Source: Marsupella aquatica
Taxonomy: Eukaryota > Plantae > Marchantiophyta
Assembly: GCA_973895155.1 (NCBI GenBank)
Contig: OZ316894.1
Coordinates: 26,769,240-26,833,239, forward strand
Direction: 5' to 3'
DNA: 64,000 nt
Positions 6,640-48,274 of the stretch are shown here, piece after piece. Each line of letters opens with the position of its first letter. Position 1 is the first letter of the stretch. The notes under the pieces are model-generated. The model did no database searches, was not told the origin of the DNA, and saw only the letters and a list, made by a program, of their open reading frames with translations. A program made the position numbers and the translations under genes.

Positions 6640-6846
6640 AACTCCCCCTTGACTCTTGTCTTGGGGACTGGACTAAATGCTACCATATGGAATCCTCAGC
6701 GGGAAGTTCTAGACAATCACCAAACCAGGTCTCCCCCTAAAAACCACAAGGGTTAACTAAGGGTTAACTAGAACTAAGCCGTAACCTAACAGGAATGAGT
6801 AATCCATATACAAATAGTCACACATTGCTAAATAACTCTACTTGCA

Positions 6847-12675: not shown

Positions 12676-12687
12676 GCTCTGATACCA
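12676..12687 (-). promoter_or_regulatory. Primer-binding site, initiator tRNA-Met type
   Basis: TGGTATCAGAGC on the minus strand, 2 nt from the 5' LTR. Confidence 0.95.
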
Positions 12688-12689
12688 CT

Positions 12690-13033
12690 TGTTGAGCATA
12701 GACGACATTCGTAACGGCAAGCCCATGAACCATCCAACGCACAAGAGTCGACACAGAGAGATACGTGGTTCACCTCCACATGAGGCTACGTCCACGGGAA
12801 CATACAAGAGCTTTACTGCACTCTAGGCCGACCGGCCATACCAAGCATCCACAGCACAAGCTCTTCCTATCTCTCAACTAGCTCCATAACAATGAGCCTT
12901 TGTTCCACCAGGGTCTGGCATCAGCCCTGGCTATATACACAACAGCACTACCGCTAACATTAGCTAAGTCCTAACCCGAGTTAGACTAACTATGGTTAGC
13001 TCATGAGTCACAAGACTAGAGCAATATCTAACA
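12690..13033 (-). repeat. 5' LTR of the Copia element
   Basis: 344-bp direct repeat of 6296-6639. Confidence 0.96.
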
Positions 13034-21477: not shown

Positions 21478-24148
21478 ATGTCTGCAGACCAGATTGTGAT
21501 GGACAAGATTGTGATGTAGTGAGGATCCTCAATATACATCATTCTAGTGCTTGACTATTTTAACTTATTGAAAAATATATTAAAAACCTAAGTTATACTA
21601 TCACTCCTAAATTTATTAAATCATAGAAATATAAGATAACTATAAAGTATAGAAATATAAGATAATAAGAAATATAAAGTAACTATAAATTTGCAATGAT
21701 GGAAAATTGAAGCGCATCAAACTGTGTGCCCAAGTACAACTGTGTGCCCAAGTACAACGAGGCGCGGGCCAGAGGAGGTTGTGTGTCATGGAATGATTCT
21801 TTAAATGTAAAATAGTACTTGCTCTGCACAGCAGATCTGTGTGATGCACTGGTAGAAGAGCCTAGTCTGGTCCTTGAGGTAGTGTGTTCAAGTCGGGCAT
21901 GAAGTAATTTTCTTTTCCAATCAACTCACGGCAGAGAAAAGGTGGCAGAGTAATAAATGAGCTTAAAGGGGTTCAATCAATTCCTACATTGAAATATATG
22001 TGGAGGAGTGCCTTGTTTGGAGGTGGTGTCTTCTGATTCCTTATCTTTCTTCCCCCTAATCTTCTTCCCATCATACTCTAGGTGTGGTGCATCCCATGGC
22101 TCCCTAAACCCAAGAAACCCCCCGGCACAAGCCGATTTCCGCAGGTTTCGCTCTTGGCAAGGCTGGTTCTGCGGCTTATCGGCATGGGACGCTGCTACTA
22201 ACATTTTACACACATATACGGTCTAGATTCTATGTCTTCCCTTGTCTTCCTCTCCTGGTCTTCCTTTAGATATGTTTGGATTCCGCCGCCGGAATGATCC
22301 CCAATTGGCTTGGGTTAGCCGCTAAGACCTCTCTCAGCTCAACACATCCAACTCTTACCACCCTGCTTAAGTCCCTTCTCTCTTGGTTGATGTGGGCAAT
22401 CTTCAAACAAGTTAATGCGACACACAAATAGCAAAATGACTCCTTCTGACTGAGTTATACCATACACTTGCCATACAAACAGTACTTCTCATACACAAGA
22501 CACAAGATCTGCGAACTAAGCCGTGAGGCCAACTCTATTCAGCTCTTAGGCATGAGGAAACATGAATATACACAAGGGTCACTGTATAACTAACCAAGAG
22601 CTACTTTTACTACTTGATCCCAGCCCTGTTGGTGCACTAAAAACTTGCTAAAGAAGAAGGCCCTTAACTCCCCGCTACCCAGGTACTTATCCTGGCAGCG
22701 GATCCGCCTAATTCCTTGTAGCATAAGCCTAATCTATCCTAAGTGTAATCTACCTATGTACAGCGAGGCAGGAGCACAAGTGTTGCTCTTACCAGTGGAT
22801 CCGCAATCCCACTAATCTAAGTGTTAGGGCCGCCCCTTGGTCCTGATCCTAATTTCTAAACTTAGAGATTTGCGCCCGCCTTGCCCACTCACGCCTCCTC
22901 CCTCCACGTCCGCCCTCCTTTAAAGGAGCGGCCCTCCACCACCGTCATGGTAGTGGTGGTTGATCCTCAATGGACGCCCCCAACGCTTCCTCCGTAGCCA
23001 CTGCCGTAGGTCCATCTTCTGACAGATTACCTGCCCTAGACCAAGTCAACTCTCCCACGGCCTGACCGGGTCCACCCTCTGCTTCGGCCTCCCCTTCGGC
23101 TACGGCCTCAGATCCAGCTACGGCCTCCCCGGCCTGCTCTAGTGGTGGCTCCGCTACCCCGGTTTCATCAATGATCGTCCGGCCTCGGCCTTGCCATCCT
23201 CGCCTTCTAGGATAGTTGAATCCTCTGTTGTGACCTTGCCTGAGGCTGGTGCCGTTTTCTCCTCCTTGGTCATGGTGGCTTGAGAAGCCGTGTTGCTCCC
23301 TGACCCGAAAGGTTTTCGCTTCTTCCTCTTCCCTGGTTCGGCAGCTGGCCCCTCCCTTTGCCACTTACCTCCGGCACCGGTGCAAGTGTCGCGGCTTGTC
23401 CCTTGGCCAGTACTACCCCTGGCAACTTTGTTGCCACAAGCACTTAAATACTGCGGCTTGTTTCTTCAGCTGCTCCGTTTGGTTGTCGGCCCGCCGTTGT
23501 AAGTTCTCCATCTTCCGCGTGCTTTCCTCCAACTCCTCCTGCGTTTCGTCTAGGTCCCTGCGTGCCTCCTCTAGCTCCTTCTGGGCTTCCTCCAATTCCT
23601 TCTTTAAGGTAGCCCTCTCTTCCTGGGTTGCTCTCAGCTCCCTATCGAGCTCCGTTACGACCTCAAACTCCATCTGGTTCATCTTGGCGTAAGTTTGATC
23701 AAGCTGGTCGTCCTTCTCATGCAGGTCGGCCTTGAAGCTGGCCATCAGGGATGCAAGCTCTTGCTGCAGCACAATAATCCCTTGATAGGTGTGACGCCGC
23801 TGGTACGGCGAGTAATGAGTTATTCAGTCTAAACCGTGCTTAGCACGCGCGTTAGGGGTATCTTAAGCCGCTATGATTAGCATAACAACAGTATTTAGGT
23901 AGCCATTATGAGTAGGAAATCATTAGTCAATAAGGGGAATTCATGTTTGGGTTGGCGGCGCGTCGCCATTTGCACGCCCGGGTTACGAGCGTGGAGGGGC
24001 CCCTCCCTCCGGTCTGTATAACAAACTTTGGGAGGCATCCACTGACACGCGATGACTCAGACCGGCGGAGTGGCCGGTACACTACAAGCGTGAACGGTTC
24101 AGCCTATAGGCAACGAGGAGATGTCGGGGGAGCGACAAGCCCTCAAGG

Positions 24149-24156
24149 TATAAAAA
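24149..24156 (+). promoter_or_regulatory. Candidate TATA box of the family-B LTR
   Basis: TATAAAAA in a GC-rich context about 100 bp upstream of the ATG at 24257, followed by a pyrimidine-rich leader. Confidence 0.55.
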
Positions 24157-25376
24157 GGGAGCCGACCCTTTGTAGTGCACCAGTCCATCAGTCCGCGCGC
24201 CAGCTTCGACCCCAGCTCTCTCGTTCGCTCTTACTCGCCACTACTATCTCCTCTGAATGTCGCACACGGTCCTCTCCAGTTCGGCCAGTCGATTCTGGAC
24301 GCAGTTCCTATCTACCGGAAGACACTTGGCCGACTCGTTGAAACACGCCAACCCGCACCGATACAAAATCGAACGCGAGTACGAGAGAGCCATCCGCCTA
24401 GCAGGACGACACCGCTATATCCTTAACTTTGACTACCCATCTCAGAGCGAGCTCTACCGACCAGCAGAGGTATCTGGGTACTTCTTCAACGAAGACAAAT
24501 ATATCGGTTTTGGGGAAGCATTGCTTCGGCTCTCGGACAAGGTCTTCAATATCCCGGGTACGATCGACTTGCAACGACATCACTTCGACCACATCCCTAC
24601 TCAGGTTCAGGCTATCATCAACAACGAGTCCAGCGCTACCCGTCCGACAAGGACATCTGCACTTGCTTTGGAGAACCTCTACCAGCACCTGCAAAGCTTC
24701 ATGGGAACTAGACCCTCAACCGCCGGCGCCGGCCCAGTCGGCCCCATACCCGTACCCGCACCAATTCAGCTTCAGCCTCAACTTTAGCCTCAACTTCAGC
24801 CTCAACCTCAACCTAGCCAAACCCAACCGCCGATTGCCCCGCCAGTACAAGTACGCTCTGTCATCGACGCAGTGGATCTTAGCGACGACAACGAGGCTAC
24901 CCCACCCTTGCTCAGGCGGCCCAGAAGAGCAAACACTCAAGGGGCCGATACTACATCGTCCCCTCCCCATGCTCGGACCCAAGGAGCGGCTCCAGCAGAC
25001 AACACGGTGACCGTGGCCGCTCCCGGCCCATTACTAAAGGTGGTAGCACTACCTATGCCCGATAGAGAGGATGGGGAGGTGTCACCTTCCCCGAGCCAGT
25101 CACGGGGGAAGAAGAGGAAGGAACCCACCATTGTATCCGGGTTACCATTGGCCACGGTAGCCGTGGCCAAGGTGACAATGCACCGCATGGGGGAAAACGT
25201 GCATAAAAACATCCTCCATCCCAAGCATGCGGTGTACCTGAAGACTCAGGGATTCGAGCACCTCGCCTCTCTCCCCTGGAACACTTGCAGGTACTACGGG
25301 GAGGACATGACGGAATTCGTCAGGAATTATGATGACGCACGTCAACAAACTTGGCTGCGGGGAAGGAATATGTCCC

Positions 25377-28300
25377 TGTGGTGCGTCCCATGGCTCCCTA
25401 AACCCAAGAAACCCCCCAGCTCAAGCCGATTCCCGCAGGTTTCGTGCTCGGCGAGGCCGTTTCCGCGGCTTAGCGGCATGGGACGCTGCTAACCTTCTAC
25501 TACTACTATTAACATTTTACACACATATACTGGACAGATCCTTCATCGGGTCATGAGATACGTAGCCGGCCTAATATAGGCCTTCCCCTGTCTTCCCCTG
25601 TCTTCCCCTCCGTCTTGTTAGGTATGTTTGGATTCCGCCGCCGGAATGATCCCCAATAGGCTTGGTTAAGCCGCTAAGACCTCTCTCAGCTCGACACATC
25701 CAACTCTCACTCCCCTGCTTACTTTCCTTCCTTCTGTTGATGTGGGCACTCTTCACACAAGTTAATGCGACACACAAATAGCAAAATGACTCATTCTGAC
25801 TGAGTCATACCATGCACTTGCCATACAAACAGTACATCTCATACACAAGTTCTGCGAACTAAGCCGTGAGGCCAACTCTATTCAGCTCTTAGGCATGAGG
25901 AAACATGAATATACACAAGGGTCACTGTATGACTAACCGAGAGCTTCTCATACTACTTGATCCCAGCCCGGCTGGTGCAAACTAAAAACTTGCTAAAGAA
26001 GAGGCCCTGAGCTCCCCGCTGCCCAGGTACTTATCCTGGTAGTGGATCCGCCATTCTTTGCATCATAAGCCTAATCTACTTAACAGTAATCTACTTGCCC
26101 GAATCTACCTATGTACAGCAAGGCAGGAGCACAAGTGTTGCTCCTACCAGTGGGACCGCAATCCCACTAAGCTAAGTGTCAGGGCCGCTCCTGGTTCTGA
26201 TCCTAATCCTAAACGTGGAGATCCATGCCCGCCCTGCCCACTCACGCCTCCTCCCTCCACGTCCGCCCTCCCTAAAAGGAACGGCGCCCTTGCACCGTCA
26301 CGACACCGGTGGTGGATCCTCAATGGACGCCCCCAACACTTCCTCCTCAGCCACTGCCGTTGGCCCGCCTACTGACAGATTACCTGCCCTTGACCGAGTC
26401 AACTCTCCATCGGCCTGACTGGGTCCACCTTCGGCTTCAGCCTCGACACCGGCCTCGGCAATACCCACGGCTTCGGCCTCAGCCACTCCCACGGCTTCGG
26501 CTTCAGCCACTCCCACGGCTTCGGCTTCAGCCACTCCCACGGCTTCGGCTTCCCCTTCCCCTAGGGTAGTTGGATCCTTAGCCGTGACCCTGTCTGGGGT
26601 CGGTGCTGGGTCTACCTCCTTGATCACCACGGCCTGTGAAGTCGTATTACTCCTTGACCCTGAAGGTTTCCGCTTCTTCTTCGTTGGTGGCTCGGCAGCT
26701 GGTCCCTTCCCCTTCCCACTTACTTCCGGCACTGGTGCAGGTGGCGCGGCTTGTCCTTCGGCAATTACCACCCCTGGTAACTGGTTTGTCCCAACAGGAG
26801 ATGGACCTGCTGCAGCTAAGCATTTAAATACTGCGGCTTGTTTCTTCAGCCGCTCTGTTTGGTTGTCGGCCCGCCGCTGTAGGTTCTCCATCTTCCTCGT
26901 GATTTCCTCCAACTCCTCTTGGGTTTCATCCAGGTCCTTACGTGCCCCCTCCAGCTCGTTTTTGGCCTCCTCCTGCTCCCTGTGGGCTTCCTCCAATTCC
27001 TTCTTCAAGGTAGCCTTCTCCTCCTGGGTTGCTCTTAGCTCCTTGTCGAGCTCTGCAATGATGACAGACTCCATCTGGTTCATCTTGGCGTAAGTCTGTT
27101 CGAGCATCTCGTCCTTCTCCCTTAGGTCGGCCTTGAAGCTGGCCGTCAGGGACGCAAGCTCCTGCTGCAGCGCCATAATCCCTTGATAGGATTTCCCTAA
27201 CTCGACCTCCTTCTGCTCAAGGGCTCCGCGGATTTTCTCGAGCTCCCCTTTCAACGCCCATTCCTTTCTTTGGGTCTCCGCCATGGCCCGGCTGTTGGCT
27301 GTTATGTGGGCCTCCTCTGTATTCTTCAGCTCTTGCTTCCACTTTTCCCTTTCTTTGATCGTGTCGGCCAACTCTTCCTGCGTCTGAGTCAGTTTATCCT
27401 TGATATTCTGATTATCAGCCTGCGCGGCGTCCAACTGCCCCTGCATGATGTTCAGCTCATGTCGTTTAATCCGCAGTTCATCTTGGGCTTTCTTGGCCGC
27501 CCTTAGATCTTCAATCTCGGCTTCCATCCTCCTAAGCCGCCGAATGACCTCGTCCTTCTTGCTTCTCTCTAAAGCCACCGCTTCTTCTAATTGGTGCTTC
27601 TCCAACTGCTCCCTATGGAAAAAGGGTCCTACCTCCAACTCCTCTCCAAAGATGCCGAGCGCAAGTTCCCCACACATCTCACCATACTCCATGGCTCTAT
27701 TCTTAGCGTAGGTGGAGTAAGTAGAAGTGATCGGCATTGCCCATCGTGGCCTCTGCTCCCAAGCCGTCCTGCGGATCTCTTCAATCGTGGCTAGAGGTTT
27801 GCTTCCTTTTTCGGCTAGCCGCCTGATGTCCTCCGGCCAATCTCCTCCTGGTAAATCCTTTTCCTTAGCCAGGGCGGCCTCTTCCTCCTCCTTGATTCGC
27901 TCCTGAAATTCCTGCACCGTCTGTTTTATGCCGTCGAAGCTCGGGGGAGCAACATCTGGTGGGGGAGACTCAGGGCTACTCTGCTGGTTGGGGTCCCCTC
28001 GCACTACCCTTGGAAGTGTGGGGACAAACCGGCCACAGGTCCTTACTCCTGGAACGTGATGGTCCGACCCATAGCCGGAATTATCATGGCTGCAGTCCTC
28101 CACTGCCTCCTCTACCTCTTGGACATCCGGCTTCTCCCTCTCCTCTTCGTTGGTAGGAGCTTCAGGCAATTCTGCCTCAGATTCGGAGCTTGAGGTTCCC
28201 ACGTACATTCGAACACCTGGCTTGGATTCCGGCCTGATTCTCTCCTTGTCTCCAGCAAAGGGGTTTTCTCTTGTGAGCCGGTGTAGGCCTACCTCTGTAG

Positions 28301-30058
28301 TAGTGTCCTGCATTGTTGCCGTTGCCGTTGTTTTTGCCGATGCCGATCTCTTTTCTTTCTCCAGTAGTTTCAGCAGACTCTGCATGCCTGGTTGCTGCAT
28401 CGGCAAGTCTTCCTTCCTGGGCCTAAACACCTGCTCGATCGTAGGACTAACAGGTGGTTGAGGCTTCTCAGCCAACGGCCTCGGCGTTGGAGCTTCCTCG
28501 GGTGCCCTTACCTGCAGGGGAAGTACCGGGGCAAAAGTCTGACCTCTGGCATACCGGCACAACAGCGGCATGTGATAGCCAAGCCGCGACACGCTCCCCA
28601 TGCTGATTACCTGCTGCTCCTCCTTTAAGATCTTCTTCAATTGGTTGAGGAGGTACCCGTTGTAGTCCCGGCTTGGGTCTGGCCTTTCTGCCAGATAGAC
28701 CTGTGCCTTGCCGATCTCTGCCCTCGGCAAGTTACAATGCATGGTCACCCGCAAGAAGTCGATCATCTCTCCTATGTGCGGGTTGGTGCAGGTGTTCCGG
28801 AAGAAGCCATTCTTCGTTGATGGCCCGGGGAACGACCGGAACTCCTTGTCAGGCAAGGTCTTCCTGGTATCAACTTTGGTCTTATTGCCCATCGGCAAGC
28901 CAAACACTTCGGCAATCACCTTGGGAGTAAGATAGAAATCCTTCCCATATATCCTCGTGCAATTGGTCTCGGGTTCCCATGACCCCACGAATTCTAATAG
29001 GTCTGACTCCGGTACCTCCGGCTTCAGCCATGGTAATCTTACAAAGGCCTCCAAGCCGGATCCGGCCATGAAGCCTTGGTACTTCTTGGTCTGCATGGCC
29101 GTAAAGCATGCATCCTCCTCCCGTGCAAAATGTAGTTGCACCTCCACCGGTAGGGTTGCCGCCCAGCCCTTCCAGGTGTCATCCCTGGTTGGAATGGCCT
29201 TGATGGGATCGACCTCCTCCTCTTCGGCTTCTCCCTGCCTCCTGCTCTGCTGCTCGGCTGGCTTCTTTGGTGCCGCCGACCTCGTTCTTTTTGCCGGGGT
29301 GGCTTCATCATTGACGGCTCCCTTCCTCTATCTCTGCTGCCGTGGAGGTTTCTCCTAGCACCGTTGCCCGGGTCCACCTTTCCGTGCTACCCTTTAATTC
29401 CCAGTGTATGTCGTTGCAGTTCTTGATGGCCTCTCGGATGCCGACGACGCTGTCTTTGCAAAACAGAAGATCGTCGAGTTGATTGGAAGTAGGCGTCCAC
29501 AGGAACTCGTCCTTGATGAGTTTGCCTCCTAAGAAAGCCGTCTTCTGCAGCTCCCACAATCGAGCGAGCTCCTGCCGTTCTCGAGCTGCCCTTTCTGACT
29601 CCTCGTCCTCGTAAGTCTTGATGTACTCAGTTGCCCGTTCGAACAGGCATCCCCAGAAATGTGCCGCTTGATTGACGTTGCTCATACCCTCCTTAGGTTG
29701 ATCGTCGGTATCTACTCTCTCCCCGAGTGCTTGCCTAAGCAGCTGACAGTAGTTGGCCTCCCGTAGTCGTCTGCCTAGTTCGTGCTCGCAAATGAGCCAC
29801 CATCTCCTGCAAGCGCTCCTTACCCCTCTCCTCTGCCGGTCCTTCTTCCCGTTGATCCTTCCTAGCCGCCGACGCTTAACGCGCCCTAACCCTAATCGGT
29901 TTTTCACCCTCAGCCTTACCTCCGGCCTCTGCCCGGGTTCCATGGTTGCCCCTAATTGTTTATATTTTCCTTGTTTTGTCACTATACTAAGGTGTTCCTA
30001 GGGTGCCTTCCTGCTTTACCCACTTAACCGGCCGAGTGATTCCTGTCTAGGCATCACA
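25377..30058 (-). repeat. 3' LTR of the family-A element (4682 bp)
   Basis: Near-identical to 36280-40937, and 24 bp longer because of one extra AEAEAVGV unit. Confidence 0.96.
26298..29943 (-). pseudogene. LTR-encoded PMD-like/coiled-coil protein, 3' LTR copy, with a single 2-bp frameshift near 29330
   Basis: ORFs 29308-29982 and 26298-29147 join into the frame that is continuous in the solo LTR (GAG ATG AAG AGG there, GAG ATA GAG here). Confidence 0.88.
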
Positions 30059-33000
30059 TAGCTCCCCACTTAATTGTGAAGCGTCCTCGCGAACAACTTC
30101 ATCTTCGTCCATATAGTATTTCTTGAGGCGGTCATAATGGATGCGAACTGGATATACCTCTCCCGTAATGTTGGCCAATTGTACGGAGCCATTGGGGAAC
30201 ATCATGGTTACTCTAAAGGGTCCTAACCAGCGAGTGTAAAGCTTCCCTGGAAACCTACTATACCTACTGTCATAAAGTAACACAAGATCACCGGTATGAA
30301 TACTAACTACTTTTAACCTTTTATCATACTGCTGCTTCATGATATTCTGTCTATATTCTACTCTCTCGGCTGAAATCATTCTCGCTTCCTCTAAAGCTTC
30401 TAACCTATATTCTCGCTCCTTTAGGCTCTCCTCCGCTGAGGCTCTTTCCTCAATTGTAACTTGAAATGTCGGTATCTCAAGTTGCATGGGTACCAGGGCT
30501 TCTTGTCCAAAGGTTAAGAAGAAGGGTGTATGACCGGTAGTGGATTTATAGGCCAGATTGTAAGCAAAAACAGCAGCAAACAATTTATCATCCCAATCGA
30601 GTTTGTTCTGAGCTACTGTCTTGTTCAATATCTTTCCTATGATTCCGTTTGCTCGTTCTGTCAACCCGTTTGCCTTTGGATGGTAGGGAGTAGTAGGCCT
30701 ATGTTTAACTAAATATTGCTCATTTAAACGACTAATTATATCATTCAAAAATTGGGTTCCTCTATCACTAACTAATTCTAGGGGTGCTCCATACCTGGTG
30801 AAGATCTGCTCATACATGAATCTAGCCGTAGTAATTGCATCATCCTTCATTGTTGGTCTGGCCTCTACCCATTTAGTTGCATAATCCGTAGCCAGGATTA
30901 TGTACTTGTTCCGTCGAGGGTGGGTCAGTGGTTTCAGAGGTCCAACGTAATCAATACCCCACTTCTCGAATGGTGCCAGAGGTAGAATAGGGTGCAGTGG
31001 ATGCCTGGTGGACGCCCTTGGTCCTCCCGCTCGTTGACAAGGATCGCATTGTTTGATAAACTGATAGACATCCTTGTGCAAGGTGGGCCACCAGTAACCG
31101 GCATTTAATATTTTCTTAGACGTGGTTACTGGGGCAAAATGTCCTCCGGCCTCCTCTCCATGCATGGCCCGTAGGACTCGTTTTACCTCTCTCTTTTCCA
31201 AACACCTTTGAATCGTGCCGTTGATTCCATGCTTGTGCAGTATGCCTTTAATGCACTGATACTGTCTGACCTTCCGCACAAAGACTGCGGCTTGCTCTCG
31301 GCTTAATCCTGGCTGTAATCTGGAAGTGCTGAGAAATTGTAAAATCTCAGGGTACCATGTACCAGCTATTTCCACAACGAATAGCTCCTCGTCGGGGAAT
31401 CGATCATCGATGCAATCCGTGGCAGGTTTACCTGTGATCCTTGAAAAGAAGTCGGCATTGGCATGTAACTTTCCCGGCTTGATCCTCAGCTCATAGTCAA
31501 ACTCCTGTAATAGCAAAATCCATCTTGCTACTCTGCCTGTAAGGTCCGGCTTATTGACTAGGTACTTCAAACTTTCATGATCAGTATGAAAGATTACCTT
31601 GTACCCTAGTAAATAATGCCTAAACTTTTTACAAGAATAAATGACTCCTAATGCTTCTCTTTCCGTGGTAGAGTAGTTCCGTTCGGCATCGGCAAGCTGA
31701 CGGCTTGCGAAGTATATGGGATGGTCCCTTCCTTTCTCATCCAACTGACTTAGTACTGAGCCAATACAGAAGCCCGAGACATCTACAAAAACATGAAAAT
31801 CTTTGTTCCAGTCCGGTGCTATCATGACTGGGGCCTCTACTAACATCTGCTTCAATTCTACCACCGCTGTGACTCGTTCGGGTGTGGGTTCGAAGTCTGC
31901 TCCTGCCTTGAGCATATTGGTTAATGGTAAAGCCAGCTTGGAAAAATCCTTGATGAACCGGCGATAGTAACCAATGCATCCCAAGAAGGATCTTACATCC
32001 TTTATGTTCTTAGGTTGCATGATATCTAGCCATACTGCTAGCTTACCTTTGTCAATCTCAATGCCCTTCCTTGATACCTTGTGACCTAGTAGCACCCCCT
32101 CGGTTACTGCAAAAAAACATTTATCTGGGTGTAACTTGAGACCCACCTCCCTACATCTCATGAAGGTTTTCCTGAGGTATTTAGCATGTTTCGATGCCTT
32201 CCCGAATACTGCAAAGTCATCAATGAAGATTTCCATGAACTTTCTCAAGTAATCATGAAAAATGTTCACCATTAATCGTTGGAACATAGCTGGTGCGTTG
32301 CAGAGTCCAAACGGCATACGATTGAAGACATAGATCCCCCATTCCGTGATGAAGGCCGTCTTGATTTGGTCTTCCTGCCGAATCCTGATTTGGTTATAAC
32401 CAGAGTATCCATCCATGAATGAATATAGTTCATGACTGGCTACCATGTCTAGTACCATATCAGTAAACGGTAAAGGAAAATGGTCTTTTAATGTTGCTTC
32501 ATTCAGCTTCCTGTAATCCTGACAAACCCGGATCTTGGGTTTACCATCGGGTCCAGCTTTTTTGGGAACTATCACAATTGGAGACACCCAGTCTGAATGC
32601 AGGATTGGAGTGATGAATCCAGCTTCCACTAGTTTGTCGATTTCTGTTTTGACCAGCAGGGAATACTTCGGGTTCATCCTTCGAATTGGTTGTCGAAATG
32701 ATTTGGCTCCTAACATGAGATCAATTCGATGTTCCCCTAGTGTTGGATCTACGCCCTTTAGATCTTGGTGACTCCATGCAAACACATCCTGAAATTCAAT
32801 CAATAAGTCACTGATCTCTTTCTCGAGCTCAGGTGCTAGGTTTCTCCCTAAGTTCAGTTCTCTTCCCTCTCCTAAGTCGAGCTTCCGATATTGCCGTGCT
32901 TGGATCATATTAATCTGCTTCTTCAAATTCGGGTCCAGTTCGGCTTCCAGTCTCTCTAATCTCATACCTCCATAAACTGGGATCTCGGCTGGACTAGCCG

Positions 33001-33313
33001 AGTCGGTCCCTTCCTTGGTGTCCATAGATTGTCCCCTTACCGGTCTATTCAGTCTTGAATTAGTGGCCGGCTCCCCTTCCTGCCTTGGCTCTGGATCGTG
33101 TCTGTCCATCTCATCCACCTCTTGCTCCTGCAAGTTAGGCCGCTGTGCTCTCTCGGCTTCTAATAGGGCCTCAATTTGTTCTGCCCTCGTAATCGGCTTG
33201 TATGCCGATCCCTTGGTATTTAATTCCTTGCCGATGATCGATGGCGTTGTGGACCCCGTCGGCTCTGCCACAATGCCTGCAGAAAATCCACTGTCCCTGC
33301 TACTGCTCCCCAC
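30047..33313 (-). CDS. pol: Gypsy pol (RT, RNase H, integrase)
   Basis: WVSPIVIVPKK, CQDYRKLN, FMDGYSGYNQI, MPFGLCNAP, FIDDF, NYSTTEREAL, H...H...CDPC, WGIDYVGP, SDRGTQF, WLGPF. The stop codon lies inside the 3' LTR. Confidence 0.96.
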   Translation of the reverse strand: MGSSSRDSGFSAGIVAEPTGSTTPSIIGKELNTKGSAYKPITRAEQIEALLEAERAQRPNLQEQEVDEMDRHDPEPRQEGEPATNSRLNRPVRGQSMDTKEGTDSASPAEIPVYGGMRLERLEAELDPNLKKQINMIQARQYRKLDLGEGRELNLGRNLAPELEKEISDLLIEFQDVFAWSHQDLKGVDPTLGEHRIDLMLGAKSFRQPIRRMNPKYSLLVKTEIDKLVEAGFITPILHSDWVSPIVIVPKKAGPDGKPKIRVCQDYRKLNEATLKDHFPLPFTDMVLDMVASHELYSFMDGYSGYNQIRIRQEDQIKTAFITEWGIYVFNRMPFGLCNAPAMFQRLMVNIFHDYLRKFMEIFIDDFAVFGKASKHAKYLRKTFMRCREVGLKLHPDKCFFAVTEGVLLGHKVSRKGIEIDKGKLAVWLDIMQPKNIKDVRSFLGCIGYYRRFIKDFSKLALPLTNMLKAGADFEPTPERVTAVVELKQMLVEAPVMIAPDWNKDFHVFVDVSGFCIGSVLSQLDEKGRDHPIYFASRQLADAERNYSTTEREALGVIYSCKKFRHYLLGYKVIFHTDHESLKYLVNKPDLTGRVARWILLLQEFDYELRIKPGKLHANADFFSRITGKPATDCIDDRFPDEELFVVEIAGTWYPEILQFLSTSRLQPGLSREQAAVFVRKVRQYQCIKGILHKHGINGTIQRCLEKREVKRVLRAMHGEEAGGHFAPVTTSKKILNAGYWWPTLHKDVYQFIKQCDPCQRAGGPRASTRHPLHPILPLAPFEKWGIDYVGPLKPLTHPRRNKYIILATDYATKWVEARPTMKDDAITTARFMYEQIFTRYGAPLELVSDRGTQFLNDIISRLNEQYLVKHRPTTPYHPKANGLTERANGIIGKILNKTVAQNKLDWDDKLFAAVFAYNLAYKSTTGHTPFFLTFGQEALVPMQLEIPTFQVTIEERASAEESLKEREYRLEALEEARMISAERVEYRQNIMKQQYDKRLKVVSIHTGDLVLLYDSRYSRFPGKLYTRWLGPFRVTMMFPNGSVQLANITGEVYPVRIHYDRLKKYYMDEDEVVREDASQLSGELCDA
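30061..30070 (-). promoter_or_regulatory. Short polypurine tract
   Basis: AGTGGGGAGC, 2 nt before the 3' LTR and within the pol reading frame. Confidence 0.7.
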
Positions 33314-34911
33314 TTAGCCGTTTCATCCAATTGGTCTACATCCTTAACTTCCTCCGGAATTGCAGCTAAAAAGGTGGATTCTATTGTAAAGCAGTCCTCG
33401 ACCTCTTCGTCTTCTTCTTCCAAGTCACCTTCCATTGGTTCTTGCCATAATCCGCTGGGGGGTACCTCTGGTCCAAAGACACCTTCTTTGGTTAGGTTAG
33501 TGAAGCATTCTAACCAACGTACTTCATCGGCTGACTCCAGTCCACTATCGTACCCATCTACTTCCCTTATGCTTTTCCTACGGTCATCCTTAGTGTCCCA
33601 GGATACCGTGATAGAGGGGGTCCCGAAAGTGAACTGCTTTTTACCCCAATCTTCTATTACCTCGGCTAGGTACAGCCATGGCCTACCAATCAATAGCCGG
33701 AATGACGTAGGATTTACCGGCTTCATTACTACATAGTTAATGCTAAAGAAGATACCTCCTATCTCTGTCTTGATGCCGGTTAACACTCCCGTCGGAATGA
33801 CCTGATATCCATTGGCCATGTTCAACACTCTTCCAGTCATCTCCGGTGTTAGACCCCACCCTTTTGCTGTTGAATCAATCATAATACATACCCCTGATCC
33901 TCCATCGATGGGTACCCGTAGTAATAATTCTCCTTGAATCATTAATGGTAATGCTGGGGCTCCTTGATCTTCTTCTATCATTAGTACGTCGGATCTGGTT
34001 GCTACCTTGGGTAATCTCGGCTTGCCGAGAATAGCCTTCCTTAATTGCTTCCGGAAGTACGGGCTATTTTTCAATAGTTGACCTACTGTTGCCGAGACTC
34101 TAGATTCTAGTACATCTTTAGCCAGGTCATAGGGAACAATCGGCTTCTCCTCTGGTGGTGTTTCCTTGGATTCGGCCAGTTTTGCCACGCTAGTCTCCAC
34201 AGCTGTTGGGTCTTCCGAAGCAAACAATGCTTTTGCTCGTTTTACATCTTTGGCAATGGCTTCGGTATTCTCCAGGGTTTCTAATTCTCTTAGTTGTTCC
34301 TTAACACTAGCCGTAACAGAGGGGTAGAACAACTTAGGATGATCTCGATTGAAGTCGCTATCTTGTGAAGGATTGGTTTCACTGGTGGGCTCATGGCTTA
34401 CCTGTATTGCCGGAGCCCTCCCTTCTCCTTCTGTTGATGTTGACGAAGAGTCGATCCTTTCCTCCGTAACCTTCCCTTTATTTTTGGCTAGCCCATCCCA
34501 CCTTTCCTTCCTTCTGGTAGATCGAGTAGAGACCCGGTAGCAATCATGATCTAAATCCTCCTCTGAGAAGGTTGATAGGGCTTCGGCCTCATCATCAGAT
34601 GGTACGAACTCTGCCTCGGCATCCTCTTGCCATCCTAGTTCGATGTGGTTGATTTGAACTCCTCCGGGGGTAGTACCTGGTGGTAAGATCTTGATCGGCA
34701 AAAGCTTATGATTTGCGGCCAGGCCTGCCAACCAAGTAGGACATTGCCCTAGCATATGACCTTCCTGTCGGCATCCCATACATAGCTGAGCTGGTTGTCC
34801 ATCACCCTGTTTGCGTGCATTCGGGCATTCTCTAGCAAAATGGCCAGGTTGACCACAATTATAGCACGCCGCAAATCTTTGCACATTCGGCCTAGGAGGT
34901 ACTGACGGGTT
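33220..34911 (-). CDS. Gag C-terminus (two CCHC knuckles) plus aspartic protease
   Basis: CYNCGQPGHFAREC, CMGCRQEGHMLGQC, VPIDGGSGV and LLIGRPWL. It is in frame with gag across one TAG. Confidence 0.9.
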   Translation of the reverse strand, partial: NPSVPPRPNVQRFAACYNCGQPGHFARECPNARKQGDGQPAQLCMGCRQEGHMLGQCPTWLAGLAANHKLLPIKILPPGTTPGGVQINHIELGWQEDAEAEFVPSDDEAEALSTFSEEDLDHDCYRVSTRSTRRKERWDGLAKNKGKVTEERIDSSSTSTEGEGRAPAIQVSHEPTSETNPSQDSDFNRDHPKLFYPSVTASVKEQLRELETLENTEAIAKDVKRAKALFASEDPTAVETSVAKLAESKETPPEEKPIVPYDLAKDVLESRVSATVGQLLKNSPYFRKQLRKAILGKPRLPKVATRSDVLMIEEDQGAPALPLMIQGELLLRVPIDGGSGVCIMIDSTAKGWGLTPEMTGRVLNMANGYQVIPTGVLTGIKTEIGGIFFSINYVVMKPVNPTSFRLLIGRPWLYLAEVIEDWGKKQFTFGTPSITVSWDTKDDRRKSIREVDGYDSGLESADEVRWLECFTNLTKEGVFGPEVPPSGLWQEPMEGDLEEEDEEVEDCFTIESTFLAAIPEEVKDVDQLDETAKWGAVAGTVDFLQALWQSRRGPQRHRSSARN

Positions 34912-36210
34912 CTAAATAATCCGAGGATACATCTCTCCTGGATTGTTCCTTAACCCTGACCACAGAGATGCAGGTCTGTTGGATAGGTCTCGTGCTCCAG
35001 TCTCACTGATGCCGAAAACACTATCAGCGGCATCTCCCAAAAAGTACTCTACTTCTCCCTGACATGGTCTGATCTCGGCCACATGCCGAACATGATTAGT
35101 ATTAAGCTTAGGACAAGCATCTTTATGGTGTCCGGTTTTATAACATAAGGCACACCATACAGAGCTATCCTCCTGTACTACCTTCTTCTTTGGTTTTACC
35201 TCTGCAATGATAGCCTTAAGTTGCTCGGTAAGGGCTACGATGTTATCTGGTGGCTTAGCCTCCATCTTGACTTTCGTCTTCCCTCTCCTTCTGCCCTTCC
35301 TTTTCCTAGTTTTTTCTTCTTCAGAACTAGAAGATGACTCACTCTTGCTACTCCCACTATCCGAGCTTGACTTATCACTTCTAGACTTCTTGGAATGTTT
35401 CTTCTTCTTATCTTTTTTCTTATGGGGTGATCCCTCCTCTGATGAGGAACTCTCAGACTTAAGCTGTTTCTTCCGGCTTGTGATATCTGCATTAATGTAT
35501 AATTGAATATCCTTAATTGCTTCGGCTAAGGTCTCTGGGTTCTCCTTCCTAATTGCAAAACTCATCTTCTGTGGCAAAGCATTCACCAACCATTGAAGTT
35601 GCATACCTTCAGATGCATTGGTCTTTGTACGTCTTACCAGTTTCTGAAAGCGTTGCAAGAACTTCCTGAAGGATTTGTTCTCCTTGAACCGAAGTTGTCC
35701 CAACTTCAGCACTGCTAGTTCTGAAGTTCCAATGGGTCGAAACTCCTTAACAAAGAGTGTTTTGAAGATATCCCAGATGGCTTGATCTTCCACATCTAAT
35801 GCTCTGTACCAAGGCCTAGCCTCACCCTTGAACAGGCCGGGAAGAATCTGCATCTTGATGGCCGATTCTCCATTTGCTGCAGCGGTTCCCTCGAAATCAT
35901 CCAACCATTCGTCCGGATCCTCATCTCCTCTCCCATGAAATGCCTTGTAATGTATGCGCGACCGCTGGCTCAATCTGGTCCCTGGCCTCTCGTCTGGCCG
36001 TGCCTCTGGTTCCCCCATGTCGGTTGGAGACTCACTTCTCCTTACCGACTCTTCTTCTGGTATGTCTTCTTCGACGCCACTTCCAGTTTCGGAGCTACCA
36101 GCTCTTTCTGCCCCTCTCAGTCGCTGTGTATCATGCCACCCGGCGAGCTGCTGCAGTCGAGCTCTCTCCCGTTGAATCACTCTTTCTTCCCTCGGCGTAA
36201 GGTCAGTCAT
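34912..36210 (-). CDS. gag: Gypsy gag (capsid domain, Ser/Lys-rich linker, CCHC knuckle)
   Basis: FHGRGDEDPDEWLDDFE, GEARPWY, WDIFKTLFVKEF and CALCYKTGHHKDAC; the ATG is about 70 nt after the 5' LTR. Confidence 0.92.
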   Translation of the reverse strand: MTDLTPREERVIQRERARLQQLAGWHDTQRLRGAERAGSSETGSGVEEDIPEEESVRRSESPTDMGEPEARPDERPGTRLSQRSRIHYKAFHGRGDEDPDEWLDDFEGTAAANGESAIKMQILPGLFKGEARPWYRALDVEDQAIWDIFKTLFVKEFRPIGTSELAVLKLGQLRFKENKSFRKFLQRFQKLVRRTKTNASEGMQLQWLVNALPQKMSFAIRKENPETLAEAIKDIQLYINADITSRKKQLKSESSSSEEGSPHKKKDKKKKHSKKSRSDKSSSDSGSSKSESSSSSEEEKTRKRKGRRRGKTKVKMEAKPPDNIVALTEQLKAIIAEVKPKKKVVQEDSSVWCALCYKTGHHKDACPKLNTNHVRHVAEIRPCQGEVEYFLGDAADSVFGISETGARDLSNRPASLWSGLRNNPGEMYPRII

Positions 36211-36256
36211 TACCTACGCTTCCGTTCTAACTTCATATCTCACGGCTTAAGAAATG

Positions 36257-36275
36257 CCCCCTCCATCTAGCGCCA
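36257..36275 (-). promoter_or_regulatory. Primer-binding site (non-Met type)
   Basis: TGGCGCTAGATGGAGGGGG, 4 nt after the 5' LTR. A TGGCG start is typical of non-chromovirus elements. The cognate tRNA was not assigned. Confidence 0.8.
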
Positions 36276-36279
36276 AAAA

Positions 36280-39200
36280 TGTGGTGCGTCCCATGGCTCC
36301 CTAAACCCAAGAAACCCTCCAGCTCAAGCCGATTCCCGCAGGTTTCGTGCTCGGCGAGGCCGTTTCCGCGGCTTAGCGGCATGGGACGCTGCTAACCTTC
36401 TACTACTACTATTAACATTTTACACACATATACTGGACAGATCCTTCATCGGGTCATGAGATACGTAGCCGGCCTAATATAGGCCTTCCCCTGTCTTCCC
36501 CTGTCTTCCCCTCCGTCTTGTTAGGTATGTTTGGATTCCGCCGCCGGAATGATCCCCAATAGGCTTGGTTAAGCCGCTAAGACCTCTCTCAGCTCGACAC
36601 ATCCAACTCTCACTCCCCTGCTTACTTTCCTTCCTTCTGTTGATGTGGGCACTCTTCACACAAGTTAATGCGACACACAAATAGCAAAATGACTCATTCT
36701 GACTGAGTCATACCATGCACTTGCCATACAAACAGTACATCTCATACACAAGTTCTGCGAACTAAGCCGTGAGGCCAACTCTATTCAGCTCTTAGGCATG
36801 AGGAAGCATGAATATACACAAGGGTCACTGTATGACTAACCGAGAGCTTCTCGTACTACTTGATCCCAGCCCGGCTGGTGCAAACTAAAAACTTGCTAAA
36901 GAAGAGGCCCTGAGCTCCCCGCTGCCCAGGTACTTATCCTGGTAGTGGATCCGCCATTCTTTGCATCGTAAGCCTAATCTACTTAACAGTAATCTACTTG
37001 CCCGAATCTACCTATGTACAGCAAGGCAGGAGCACAAGTGTTGCTCCTACCAGTGGGACCGCAATCCCACTAAGCTAAGTGTCAGGGCCGCTCCTGGTTC
37101 TGATCCTAATCCTAAACGTGGAGATCCGTGCCCGCCCTGCCCACTCACGCCTCCTCCCTCCACGTCCGCCCTCCCTAAAAGGAACGACGCCCTTGCACCG
37201 TCACGACACCGGTGGTGGATCCTCAATGGACGCCCCCAACACTTCCTCCTCAGCCACTGCCGTTGGCCCGCCTACTGACAGATTACCTGCCCTTGACCGA
37301 GTCAACTCTCCATCGGCCTGACTGGGTCCACCTTCGGCTTCAGCCTCGACACCGGCCTCGGCAATACCCACGGCTTCGGCCTCAGCCACTCCCACGGCTT
37401 CGGCTTCAGCCACTCCCACGGCTTCGGCTTCCCCTTCCCCTAGGGTAGTTGGATCCTTAGCCGTGACCCTGTCTGGGGTCGGTGCTGGGTCTACCTCCTT
37501 GATCACCACGGCCTGTGAAGTCGTATTACTCCTTGACCCTGAAGGTTTCCGCTTCTTCTTCATTGGTGGCTCGGCAGCTGGTCCCTTCCCCTTCCCACTT
37601 ACTTCCGGCACTGGTGCAGGTGGCGCGGCTTGTCCTTCGGCAATTACCACCCCTGGTAACTGGTTTGTCCCAACAGGAGATGGACCTGCTGCAGCTAAGC
37701 ATTTAAATACTGCGGCTTGTTTCTTCAGCCGCTCTGTTTGGTTGTCGGCCCGCCGCTGTAGGTTCTCCATCTTCCTCGTGATTTCCTCCAACTCCTCTTG
37801 GGTTTCATCCAGGTCCTTACGTGCCCCCTCCAGCTCGTTTTTGGCCTCCTCCTGCTCCCTGTGGGCTTCCTCCAATTCCTTCTTCAAGGTAGCCTTCTCC
37901 TCGTGGGTTGCTCTTAGCTCCTTGTCGAGCTCTGCAATGATGACAGACTCCATCTGGTTCATCTTGGCGTAAGTCTGTTCGAGCATCTCGTCCTTCTCCC
38001 TTAGGTCGGCCTTGAAGCTGGCCGTCAGGGACGCAAGCTCCTGCTGCAGCGCCATAATCCCTTGATAGGATTTCCCTAACTCGACCTCCTTCTGCTCAAG
38101 GGCTCCGCGGATTTTCTCGAGCTCCCCTTTCAACGCCCATTCCTTTCTTTGGGTCTCCGCCATGGCCCGGCTGTTGGCTGTTATGTGGGCCTCCTCTGTA
38201 TTCTTCAGCTCTTGCTTCCACTTTTCCCTTTCTTTGATCGTGTCGGCCAACTCTTCCTGCGTCTGAGTCAGTTTATCCTTGATATTCTGATTATCAGCCT
38301 GCGCGGCGTCCAACTGCCCCTGCATGATGTTCAGCTCATGTCGTTTAATCCGCAGTTCATCTTGGGCTTTCTTGGCCGCCCTTAGATCTTCAATCTCGGC
38401 TTCCATCCTCCTAAGCCGCCGAATGACCTCGTCCTTCTTGCTTCTCTCTAAAGCCACCGCTTCTTCTAATTGGTGCTTCTCCAACTGCTCCCTATGGAAA
38501 AAGGGTCCTACCTCCAACTCCTCTCCAAAGATGCCGAGCGCAAGTTCCCCACACATCTCACCATACTCCATGGCTCTATTCTTAGCGTAGGTGGAGTAAG
38601 TAGAAGTGATCGGCATTGCCCATCGTGGCCTCTGCTCCCAAGCCGTCCTGCGGATCTCTTCAATCGTGGCTAGAGGTTTGCTTCCTTTTTCGGCTAGCCG
38701 CCTGATGTCCTCCGGCCAATCTCCTCCTGGTAAATCCTTTTCCTTAGCCAGGGCGGCCTCTTCCTCCTACTTGATTCGCTCCTGAAATTCCTGCACCGTC
38801 TGTTTTATGCCGTCGAAGCTCGGGGGAGCAACATCTGGTGGGGGAGACTCAGGGCTACTCTGCTGGTTGGGGTCCCCTCGCACTACCCTTGGAAGTGTGG
38901 GGACAAACCGGCCACAGGTCCTTACTCCTGGAACGTGATGGTCCGACCCATAGCCGGAATTATCATGGCTGCAGTCCTCCACTGCCTCCTCTACCTCTTG
39001 GACGTCCGGCTTCTCCCTCTCCTCTTCGTTGGTAGGAGCTTCAGGCAATTCTGCCTCAGATTCGGAGCTTGAGGTTCCCACGTACATTCGAACACCTGGC
39101 TTGGATTCCGGCCTGATTCTCTCCTTGTCTCCAGCAAAGGGGTTTTCTCTTGTGAGCCGGTGTAGGCCTACCTCTGTAGTAGTGTCCTGCATTGTTGCCG

Positions 39201-40937
39201 TTGCCGTTGTTTTTGCCGATGCCGATCTCTTTTCTTTCTCCAGTAGTTTCAGCAGACTCTGCATGCCTGGTTGCTGCATCGGCAAGTCTTCCTTCCTGGG
39301 CCTAAACACCTGCTCGATCGTAGGACTAACAGGTGGTTGAGGCTTCTCAGCCAACGGCCTCGGCGTTGGAGCTTCCTCGGGTGCCCTTACCTGCAGGGGA
39401 AGTACCGGGGCAAAAGTCTGACCTCTGGCATACCGGCACAACAGCGGCATGTGATAGCCAAGCCGCGACACGCTCCCCATGCCGATTACCTGCTGCTCCT
39501 CCTTTAAGATCTTCTTCAATTGGTTGAGGAGGTACCCGTTGTAGTCCCGGCTTGGGTCTGGCCTTTCTGCCAGATAGACCTGTGCCTTGCCGATCTCTGC
39601 CCTCGGCAAGTTACAATGCATGGTCACCCGCAAGAAGTCGATCATCTCTCCTATGTGCGGGTTGGTGCAGGTGTTCCGGAAGAAGCCATTCTTCGTTGAT
39701 GGCCCGGGGAACGACCGGAACTCCTTGTCAGGCAAGGTCTTCCTGGTATCAACTTTGGTCTTATTGCCCATCGGCAAGCCAAACACTTCGGCAATCACCT
39801 TGGGAGTAAGATAGAAATCCTTCCCATATATCCTCGTGCAATTGGTCTCGGGTTCCCATGACCCCACGAATTCTAATAGGTCTGACTCCGGTACCTCCGG
39901 CTTCAGCCATGGTAATCTTACAAAGGCCTCCAAGCCGGATCCGGCCATGAAGCCTTGGTACTTCTTGGTCTGCATGGCCGTAAAGCATGCATCCTCCTCC
40001 CGTGCAAAATGTAGTTGCACCTCCACCGGTAGGGTTGCCGCCCAGCCCTTCCAGGTGTCATCCCTGGTTGGAATGGCCTTGATGGGATCGACCTCCTCCT
40101 CTTCGGCTTCTCCCTGCCTCCTGCTCTGCTGCTCGGCTGGCTTCTTTGGTGCCGCCGACCTCGTTCTTTTTGCCGGGGTGGCTTCATCGTTGACGGCTCC
40201 CTTCCTCTATCTCTGCTGCCGTGGAGGTTTCTCCTAGCACCGTTGCCCGGGTCCACCTTTCCGTGCTACCCTTTAATTCCCAGTGTATGTCGTTGCAGTT
40301 CTTGATGGCCTCTCGGATGCCGACGACGCTGTCTTTGCAAAACAGAAGATCGTCGAGTTGATTGGAAGTAGGCGTCCACAGGAACTCGTCCTTGATGAGT
40401 TTGCCTCCTAAGAAAGCCGTCTTCTGCAGCTCCCACAATCGAGCGAGCTCCTGCCGTTCTCGAGCTGCCCTTTCTGACTCCTCGTCCTCGTAAGTCTTGA
40501 TGTACTCAGTTGCCCGTTCGAACAGGCATCCCCAGAAATGTGCCGCTTGATTGACGTTGCTCATACCCTCCTTAGGTTGATCGTCGGTATCTACTCTCTC
40601 CCCGAGTGCTTGCCTAAGCAGCTGACAGTAGTTGGCCTCCCGTAGTCGTCTGCCTAGTTCGTGCTCGCAAATGAGCCACCATCTCCTGCAAGCGCTCCTT
40701 ACCCCTCTCCTCTGCCGGTCCTTCTTCCCGTTGATCCTTCCTAGCCGCCGACGCTTAACGCGCCCTAACCCTAATCGGTTTTTCACCCTCAGCCTTACCT
40801 CCGGCCTCTGCCCGGGTTCCATGGTTGCCCCTAATTGTTTATATTTTCCTTGTTTTGTCACTATACTAAGGTGTTCCTAGGGTGCCTTCCTGCTTTACCC
40901 ACTTAACCGGCCGAGTGATTCCTGTCTAGGCATCACA
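36280..40937 (-). repeat. 5' LTR of the family-A element (4658 bp)
   Basis: Direct repeat of 25377-30058, followed by the PBS and gag. Confidence 0.96.
37201..40822 (-). pseudogene. LTR-encoded protein, 5' LTR copy
   Basis: Carries the same 2-bp deletion (near 40209) plus an in-frame TAG at 38767-38769. Confidence 0.88.
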
Positions 40938-46900: not shown

Positions 46901-48253
46901 ACCTTACCTGACAAGGAGTTCCGGTCATTCCCAGGACCATCAACGAAGAATGGCTTCTTCCGGAACACTTGCACCAACCCGCACATCGGAGAGATGATCG
47001 ATTTCTTGCGGGTGATCATGCACTGTAACTTGCCAAGGGCAGAGATCGGCAAGGCTCAGGTCTACCTGGCAGAAAGGCCAGACCCAAGCCGGGATTACAA
47101 CGGGTACCTCCTCAACCAACTGAAGAAGATCTTGAAGGAGGAACAGCAGGTGATCGGCGTGGGAAGCGTGTCCTGGCTTGGCTATCACATGCCGCTGTTG
47201 TGCCGGTATGCCAGAAGTCAAATCTTTGCCCCAGTGTTTCCCCTATCGGCAAGGGCACCGGAGGAGGTTCCGGAGCAGAGGCCGGCACCAGAGAAGCCCA
47301 ACCAACCAGACAATTTGATGATCGAGTAGGTGTTTTGGACAAGGAAAGAAGACGTGCCGATGCAGCAACCAGGCATGCAAAGTCTGTTGAACTTACTGGA
47401 GAAGGAAAGGAGAACGGTTCCGGCAACGGCAACGGCAAGGATACAGGACGATGCCCCAGAGGTCGGCTTAAGCTGACTCAGAGGGGAAGATCCCTTTACC
47501 GGAGCCAAGGAGAGAAGGAGGCCAGAACACAAGCAGGGAGTGCGGATGTATGTGGGAGCCTCAAGCCCCGAATCAAAGGCAGAGTAGCCTAAGGCTCCTT
47601 TCCGCGAAGAGCAGAAGGAGACGACAGCCTGGAAACCAGAGGAACCAGAGGCCGTTTTCACGACTGGACCAGGGGAACAAGGGGAGAAGGCGGGAGTCCA
47701 AGTAGTGGAGGAGGCGGGAGAGGACTACAACAATGATAACTCCGGCTATGGGTCGGATCATCATGTTCCAGGAGTAAGGACCTGTGGCCGATTTATCCCC
47801 ACGCTTCCAAGAGTAGTTTGAGGGGACCCCAACCAGCAGAGTAGCCCGAGTCTCCCCCACCAGAGATTTCTCCCCCGAGCTTTGACGGCATAAAGCAGAC
47901 GGCACAAGAATTTCAGGAGCGACTTAGGGAAGAAGAGAAAGCAGCCCTGGCTAGGGAGAAGGATTTACCAAGAGGAGATTGGCCGAAGGACATCAGGCGG
48001 CTTGCCGAAAAAAGAAGCAACCCTCTTGCCACCATAGAAGAAATCCGCAAGACGGCTTGGGAGCAGAGGCCGCGGTGGGTAATGCCGATGACTTCTAGTT
48101 ACTCCACCTATGCTAAGGATAGAGCCATGGAGTATGGGGAGATGTGTGGGGAACTGGCGTGTGATGCCTAGACAGGAATCACTCGGCCGGTTAGGTGGGT
48201 AAAGCAGGAAGGCACCCTAGGAACACCTTAGTATAGTGACAAAACAAGGAAAA

Positions 48254-48259
48254 TATAAA
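48254..48259 (+). promoter_or_regulatory. Candidate TATA box near the 5' end of the family-A LTR
   Basis: AAATATAAAC about 95 bp from the LTR start, conserved in the older copy at about 45788-45797. Confidence 0.45.
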
Positions 48260-48274
48260 CAATTAGGGGCAACC

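Follow-up and report, generated by a model that had tools for sequence, protein, structure and literature searches.

Giant long terminal repeats with an open reading frame under purifying selection in a Ty3/gypsy retrotransposon of the liverwort Marsupella aquatica

Retrotransposons of the Athila type are described in REXdb (PMC6317226) as large elements with neither an aRH domain nor a chromodomain, with 5-bp target-site duplications (TSDs), a primer binding site (PBS) for tRNA-Asp, -Asn or -Ala, and a sense extra open reading frame (ORF) downstream of pol. Extra ORFs are internal in angiosperm relatives (PMC7264820), and Athila4 and Calypso each have one extra, second polypurine tract (PPT; PMC2829016). 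Long terminal repeats (LTRs) of up to 5-6.5 kb are found in Ogre and other long-LTR elements, in which extra ORFs are likewise internal (PMC6431247, PMC6317226), the polyprotein of CRM group A chromoviruses reaches into the 3' LTR in every element (PMC3059260), and whole accessory ORFs lie within the LTR, in U3, in vertebrate retroviruses, as sag and rem of mouse mammary tumour virus and nef of human immunodeficiency virus 1 (PMC12789967). Long LTRs, internal extra ORFs, pol/LTR overlap and retroviral U3 ORFs are thus all previously known. The element considered here is a young Ty3/gypsy non-chromovirus of 15,561 bp, 60% of it LTR, on the minus strand of a 64,000-nucleotide stretch of Marsupella aquatica DNA (GCA_973895155.1, contig OZ316894.1, positions 26,769,240 to 26,833,239), the whole of which is called the window and numbered from its first letter. 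Its novelty lies in an LTR that itself carries a selected gene, and not in the overlap; full-text literature searches, made with literal phrases and with most subscription journals outside their coverage, returned no paper on ORFs inside plant LTRs.

About 72% of the giant LTR is coding, which sets it apart from the Ogre-type elements, and the encoded plant protein, with a predicted PMD/VANC fold, is unrelated to the retroviral accessory proteins. The ORF is under purifying selection: in pairwise comparison with two older copies, the ratio of nonsynonymous to synonymous substitution rates (dN/dS) is 0.11-0.59 in 13 of 14 segments, and the lowest values (0.11 and 0.14) fall within a core domain of 210 residues. 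The first 86 codons give 1.26 in the same comparison, which speaks against a start at the ATG of LTR nt 116, a candidate that was rejected for this reason; because these preceding codons evolve neutrally, the likely start is at LTR nt 374, leaving about 1,120 codons. Both parts of the ORF lie in one frame in a young solo LTR of the same family, the LTRs of the element lacking two bases there, and contigs with the joined frame are present in all four sequencing runs examined. Six runs, from four organisms and four studies, contain 0.46-0.74 of the words sampled from the window, and one of them may be its source.

The coding-LTR design is common to at least two families, since a second, divergent solo LTR in the window, 4,011 bp in total, has a homologous ORF domain (29% over 134 residues, E 9e-10) and the same layout of 467 nt, ORF and about 900 nt. 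The element is inserted into this second LTR, contigs joining the empty site occur in three of the four runs, and no PBS or internal repeats were seen in the 4,011-bp unit. The N-terminal parts of the two ORFs are marginally similar (46 of 2,000 shuffles), and the families are unlike in DNA save for one short shared hairpin, a 14-mer (25633-25646 and 43180-43193) within a 29-nt match that is the best DNA similarity between them and lies 170-270 nt before the end of each LTR.

Among named sequences, those closest to pol come from liverworts (Calypogeia fissa at 64-67% in partial matches, Riccia mostly at 45-57%). Many metagenome proteins match almost the whole of the region, at up to 58%, and no relative of pol is present in the viral sequence collection. 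Quick trees of pol, one with 90 of 124 rows and a second with 53 chosen rows, both built with no REXdb references, place the window in a clade with Riccia and metagenome rows (support 100), apart from the angiosperm rows, on a long branch whose sister grouping with the L003 clade has support of 91-92. The integrase end is present in 43 of the 80 metagenome loci. All three of the closest loci (L001-L003, 51-56%) have a sense extra ORF downstream, and the domain of the window ORF matches theirs at 87% in hhalign, a value from small alignments. With 155 relatives the same comparison rises to 97.9% (E 6e-13; reversed control E 0.55), and a hidden Markov model of these relatives gives the window ORF a score of 21.4 bits, where none of 500 shuffles exceeded 5.2, the 155 having been picked by an L001-L003-only profile out of 182 sequences whose pool came from a profile that included the window. 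Pfam assigns neither the LTR ORF nor the extra ORFs of L001-L003 to a family, and a single-sequence search with residues 60-500 found no match among 7,996 candidates, whereas profile searches did give matches. Transposase_32 and ATHILA ORF-1 (PF20167, PF03078), atlas leads at 0.88, gave no Pfam match; the family profile matches Transposase_32-bearing ORFs at 43.8% (E 2e-4), the window profile directly at only 6.4%. The angiosperm Athila-type locus L010 has its Transposase_32 ORF upstream of the terminal PPT.

One AlphaFold2 model of the core domain, made from the solo-LTR copy (49085-49714) with 60 rows, reached a predicted local distance difference test score of 80.8. VIA-align places it on the DNA-bound structure of VANC21, the anti-silencing protein of VANDAL21 DNA transposons (PDB 9lnj/9lnk), at Z 7.9, and a comparison with 48,161 chains gave Z 8.0 (root-mean-square deviation 3.8 over 186 residues; next match Z 2.4). 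A Z near 8 can reflect a common arrangement, but real kinship between the modelled domain and VANC21 is favoured because of the gap to the next match and the near-full coverage. The viral structure library and a PDB sequence search gave nothing clear for this domain. VANC21 demethylates and mobilises its own transposon (PMC8756742); VANC is reportedly related in structure to MAIN, a PMD protein, and coiled coils are predicted to mediate the multimerisation of both VANC and Athila-domain proteins (PMC13547354). The LTR protein resembles VANC21 in its predicted core fold, in having a coiled-coil part and in being transposon-encoded, and differs in that the gene sits in a retrotransposon LTR. The VANC21-like fold of the model, the demethylation by VANC21 and the predicted long coil together make anti-silencing the preferred candidate function. 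Several observations tell against it: the Foldseek search of the model was not significant, VANC21-DNA standing out by a template-modelling score of 0.40 at E 3.9; identity to VANC21 is 9-10%; a shared fold shows no function; and the frame break is common to both LTRs of the element, so that the ORF product is not needed in cis.

Where both LTRs begin on the left is determined by the PPT, from which plus-strand DNA is primed, together with the TG end that follows it. Minus-strand positions 30075-30047 read AATTAAGTGGGGAGCTA followed by TGTGATGCCTAG, and the pol frame translates to SQLSGELCDA and a stop. The sequence-only reading had pol pass through a short PPT and end 12 nt into the LTR, which is borne out, the LTR start at 30058 being independently fixed by three copies; its statement that there is no 3' untranslated region also stands, since integrase codons take in both the purine tract (30071-30062) and the 3-nt spacer, and the stop falls at LTR nt 10-12. 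A TAA lies at the start of the purine tract, one base out of the pol frame. Because 6 of the 116 relatives with an integrase end stop at EDAHG or GDAHG, two residues past the shared EDA/GDA motif (VREDA in the window), the read-through is likely a small frame difference, and its 12 nt likely a by-product of a PPT cassette placed on the integrase end; a PPT-like tract directly behind the integrase is common to the window and to L001, L002, L003, L081 and L082. Such an overlap by itself is already known from CRM group A (PMC3059260), with which the element shares a pol that runs into the 3' LTR. In CRM group A the overlapping stretch codes for the CR targeting motif, in the element for three residues only; the tRNA-Met PBS and LTR-encoded CR motif of that group are not found in the element, which is no chromovirus and has non-chromoviruses as its nearest relatives. 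In run X4, eight contigs match at most 7 nt into the LTR (window 30052) and continue in different AT-rich sequence, possibly another family with the same PPT cassette but another LTR.

The LTR start has probably, though far from certainly, moved from a PPT behind the accessory gene to one in front of it. The locus L002, a circularly permuted whole element on one contig, reads pol stop, PPT-like cassette with no TG at the usual spacing, 745-codon ORF and second cassette, the latter 124 nt past the ORF stop and followed by TGTGATG, 991 nt, PBS and gag. Its LTR would be about 1 kb long if the start is read from which cassette has a TG end. It corresponds to the sister lineage, with the ORF between integrase and a short LTR, that the sequence-only reading had proposed to look for: PPT-like sites stand on both sides of the ORF, although the LTR start is read from motifs only. 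The spacing from cassette to ATG is 451 nt in L002 and 373 nt in the window LTR, and from ORF stop to LTR end about 1.1 kb in L002, 921 nt in the window and about 900 nt in the second family. When the LTR was scanned with five cassettes, the best PPT-like window (LTR nt 3766-3815) lay just past the ORF stop, with TG at 26259, and was kept in both older copies, so the vestigial PPT that had been suggested for the distal LTR has a candidate, at a modest score. In shuffles of the distal part, its score was reached in 5 of 300 with the L002 terminal site; when both L002 sites were used, 1 of 300 reached it, the site sets having been compared post hoc. The L002 layout and this relic site partly support the earlier idea of a switch to an upstream PPT that absorbed the extra-ORF region, but not that it occurred in a single step: such a PPT must in addition have a TG attachment end and take priority over the downstream PPT, and the upstream PPTs of Sireviruses, which have no TG end, are thought to lose a kinetic race to the terminal one (PMC2829016). 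The shift needs at least two changes, because a TG end has to be gained upstream and the PPT weakened downstream.

The proposed course would begin with a PPT-like cassette directly behind the integrase in the bryophyte-type clade and a second behind the extra ORF, as in L002. The upstream cassette would gain a usable TG end and the downstream one lose priority, upon which the 373-nt spacer, the ORF and the relic PPT would join the old LTR of about 0.9 kb and be copied to both ends. Each LTR, solo ones included, would then be a cassette in which the gene has a candidate TATA promoter ahead of it and a candidate poly(A) region behind it, and the ORF product, likely a DNA-binding coiled-coil protein, could aid the escape of the family from host silencing.

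A number of findings weigh against the shift. The relic score was reached in 9 of 30 whole-LTR shuffles with the five cassettes, and in 30 of 300 shuffles of the distal 921 nt with the five sites; the second LTR family has no clear relic, its best windows (72-82) being at shuffle level; and no DNA similarity was found between the distal 0.9 kb and the L002 LTR. L002 is moreover a collapsed contig that includes one LTR only, and assembly would give the same result for a giant LTR. The working cassette is closer to the downstream cassette of L002 (50, with the shared TGTGATG) than to its post-integrase one (22), a likeness that would also agree with the terminal cassette having been copied or the internal region lost. 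Behind the post-integrase cassette, TG is present in L001 and L003 as well as in the window, not in L002, L081 or L082; as L001 and L003 stand on both tree sides of the window, the direction of the shift is not fixed. The sole distal TATA-like site, finally, is missing from an older copy. Contigs on the distal LTR have mixed flanks where the LTR truly ends (agreement 0.39-0.58); at the relic PPT none were among the 24 of 401 loose-end rows that were listed, so that no short-LTR form of the family was seen in those rows, although contigs cannot show absence. One contig of run X2 joins the LTR end (25377) to LTR nt ~3828 (26231), near the relic PPT, and may be either a nested insertion or a tandem distal unit.

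Where transcription begins bears on which part of the LTR holds the gene. It is conceivable, if doubtful, that the genomic RNA starts at a proximal promoter near LTR nt 125, which would put the ORF in an R region of about 4 kb; this account is compatible with the boundary shift and counters only the earlier placement in U3. The absorption "into U3" is a further part of the sequence-only reading that finds no support in that form, given that the best TATA-like sites are upstream of the ORF and compatible with R: they lie at +95 in the window LTR, where the site is conserved, at +360 in the second LTR, followed by a CT-rich leader and an ATG at +468, and at +459 in L003, and neither the second family nor an older copy has a matching site in its distal part. 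Downstream of the ORF there are TGTA-rich stretches (25739-25929 in the window LTR), 350-550 nt from the LTR end in both giant-LTR families. Against an R location, gag would be preceded by a 4.5-kb leader that contains a long ORF, and a distal promoter or splicing would be required for it in any case, L001 and L002 have no TATA match before their ORFs, and TATA-less promoters are common. Together, the TATA positions and the TGTA-rich stretches suggest that the ORF may have its own promoter and argue against a place in U5. Short words are enriched in the non-coding parts, and they are family-specific: TTAG in both window families (z about 4; 25377-26297 and 42469-43366), AGCGC in L002 (6574-7565) and CGGAA in L003 (2389-3158). 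This recalls the target arrays of VANC, although control regions gave enrichments of similar size for other words.

The boundary itself could also have arisen by insertion instead of a shift, the internal extra ORF having been lost (as happened in Diaspora) and the integrase left beside the true terminal PPT, and an ORF cassette having recombined into the LTR by template switching from a relative. The likeness of the working cassette to the L002 terminal cassette, TGTGATG included, and the missing relic in the second family would suit this, as would the ORF-less members of the Athila lineage with pol near the PPT (PMC1142308). It is nevertheless unlikely, given the post-integrase cassettes in all five closest loci examined (L001-L003, L081, L082), the order and spacings that agree with L002, and the lack of terminal repeats or proximal-distal LTR similarity that would mark a nested insert. 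Slightly less credit still is given to a reverse direction or repeated toggling, in which the ORF-in-LTR state would be old and L002 would have come to use the downstream PPT, with a shorter LTR as the outcome. The loci with TG behind the post-integrase cassette (L001, L003 and the window) belong to different subclades, the 215 nt that follow the ORF of L003 contain no PPT-like site, and the two divergent window families share the layout, all of which it would explain; the outgroup loci L081 and L082, outside the clade that holds the window, however have no TG there, and angiosperm relatives keep the ORF internal (PMC7264820). L081 and L082 are plant-type retrotransposon contigs within a cyanobacterial genome bin, likely a contamination from a plant host. 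Very improbable, lastly, is the view of the LTR ORF as a passenger in decay that serves no function at present, for although each of the three young LTR copies carries a frame break or a stop in the ORF, the core-domain dN/dS against the older copies, the joined-frame contigs in every run examined and a domain family of 568 representatives at E<=0.001 all speak against it.

The element has gag, reverse transcriptase (RT), RNase H and integrase in this order between TG...CA LTRs, with PBS, PPT and TSD, and is on these characters a Ty3/gypsy LTR retrotransposon (Table 1). The three young LTR copies start with TGTGATGCC (30058, 40937 and, in the solo LTR, 48160) and all end in CACCACA (25377, 36280, 52819), and the few differences between the two LTRs of the element indicate a young insertion. 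A Pfam scan of the element found gag, zinc knuckle, RT, RNase H and integrase and gave no match to an aRH domain or a chromodomain; pol leaves no room for an aRH domain, and the integrase ends at the LTR. The protease label rests on a DGG motif common to relatives and has no Pfam match. The PBS is presumably of the tRNA-Asn type; no tRNA gene is present in the window. The frames of gag-protease and RT-RNase H-integrase differ and overlap at 33220-33313, where a contig of run X4 crosses gap-free, and L002 has a single stop at the corresponding joint, so the split may be natural. An exact second copy of the PPT 10-mer lies at this protease/RT joint (33306-33315); this copy, at 33315, falls on Trp-Gly codons that relatives also have and is likely due to chance rather than a central PPT.

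Like Athila, then, the element has no aRH domain and no chromodomain, a 5-bp TSD, a large size, a sense extra ORF downstream of pol and presumably a PBS of the tRNA-Asp/Asn type. It differs in that the extra ORF is inside both LTRs and not between pol and the terminal PPT, and in that its pol falls in the separate clade of liverwort and metagenome sequences. Phygy and Selgy are given as elements of 5-9 kb with a 4-bp TSD (NCGN for Phygy) and no extra ORF, and Tat, Ogre and Retand as having an additional aRH domain (PMC6317226, supplement file 3); the 5-bp TSD and the missing aRH match exclude Phygy, Selgy and Tat, and the 15.6 kb and extra ORF of the element also set it apart from the first two. 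The element is provisionally called Athila-related.

Table 1. Coordinates of the element, its LTR-borne ORF and the related LTR copies, as positions in the window
Feature	Position	Strand	Remarks
LTR-borne extra ORF, ~1,120 codons, sense	26298..29685	-	likely start LTR nt 374; frame broken near 29330
Conserved core domain of LTR ORF	28506..29135	-	dN/dS 0.11-0.14; predicted VANC21/PMD-like fold
Predicted coiled-coil region of LTR ORF, approximate bounds	26840..27560	-	from sequence; weak ATG16 coil match
TATA-like site, LTR nt 95	29959..29964	-	kept in an older copy; candidate promoter of LTR ORF
Candidate relic PPT	26260..26290	-	directly past ORF stop; TG at 26259; kept in older copies
Distal non-coding part of LTR, 921 nt	25377..26297	-	likely ancestral short LTR
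3' LTR, 4,682 bp	25377..30058	-	differs from 5' LTR by 12 substitutions in 4,658 columns and by one 24-nt indel
Functional PPT (AAGTGGGGAG) and 3-nt spacer	30059..30071	-	within integrase codons
RT-RNase H-integrase ORF	30047..33313	-	frame differs from gag; stop is LTR nt 10-12
Zinc knuckle and protease-like region	33220..34911	-	same frame as gag
gag (Retrotrans_gag)	34912..36213	-	terminated by in-frame stop
Primer binding site	36258..36275	-	4 nt past 5' LTR
5' LTR, 4,658 bp	36280..40937	-	ORF copy with 2-nt frame break and one stop; TSD GGGAC (element)
Young solo LTR, same family	48160..52819	+	TSD TGGCG; ORF parts in one frame, one internal stop
Second, divergent solo LTR, left part	23790..25376	+	TG...CA, TSD ATAGG; host of element
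Second solo LTR, right part	40938..43366	+	homologous ORF domain; ~0.9 kb non-coding end
Older giant-LTR copy, distal part	22083..23789	-	78% identity
Older giant-LTR copy, middle part	43367..45697	-	~81% identity
Older giant LTR	45698..54318	+	81-83% identity; split by young solo LTR; truncated near 54318

The LTR units between 22083 and 54318 are nested, an older LTR holding the second-family solo LTR, which holds the full element, and another older LTR, adjoining the first, holding the young solo LTR, so that a preference for insertion into kin LTRs may exist. A diverged fragment of the N-terminal part of the LTR ORF (41% over 91 residues) lies at 3854-4090, distant from any LTR. Elsewhere the window has two related pentatricopeptide repeat gene copies (1-3257 and 15107-18713) with 303-bp repeats, E, E+ and DYW domains being present in one of the two, and a Ty1/copia element (6296-13033) whose 344-bp LTRs are 98.8% identical and whose gag and pol are separated by a stop.

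It is tentatively proposed that a bryophyte clade keeps a VANC-like anti-silencing gene between two PPTs, that some of its families have moved the LTR start upstream, and that each of their LTRs, solo ones included, is a self-contained anti-silencing gene with its own promoter. If this is true, the formation of solo LTRs, the usual route by which the host removes such elements, would leave a counter-defence gene behind. A shift between two PPTs that flank an accessory gene would be a testable route to giant LTRs, with L002 as its likely natural counterpart, and the "env-like" extra ORFs of Athila-related elements would gain a functional lead that points to DNA binding and anti-silencing rather than to an envelope. 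Annotation pipelines that treat LTRs as non-coding would overlook such genes, and the solo LTRs that carry them would be gene copies.

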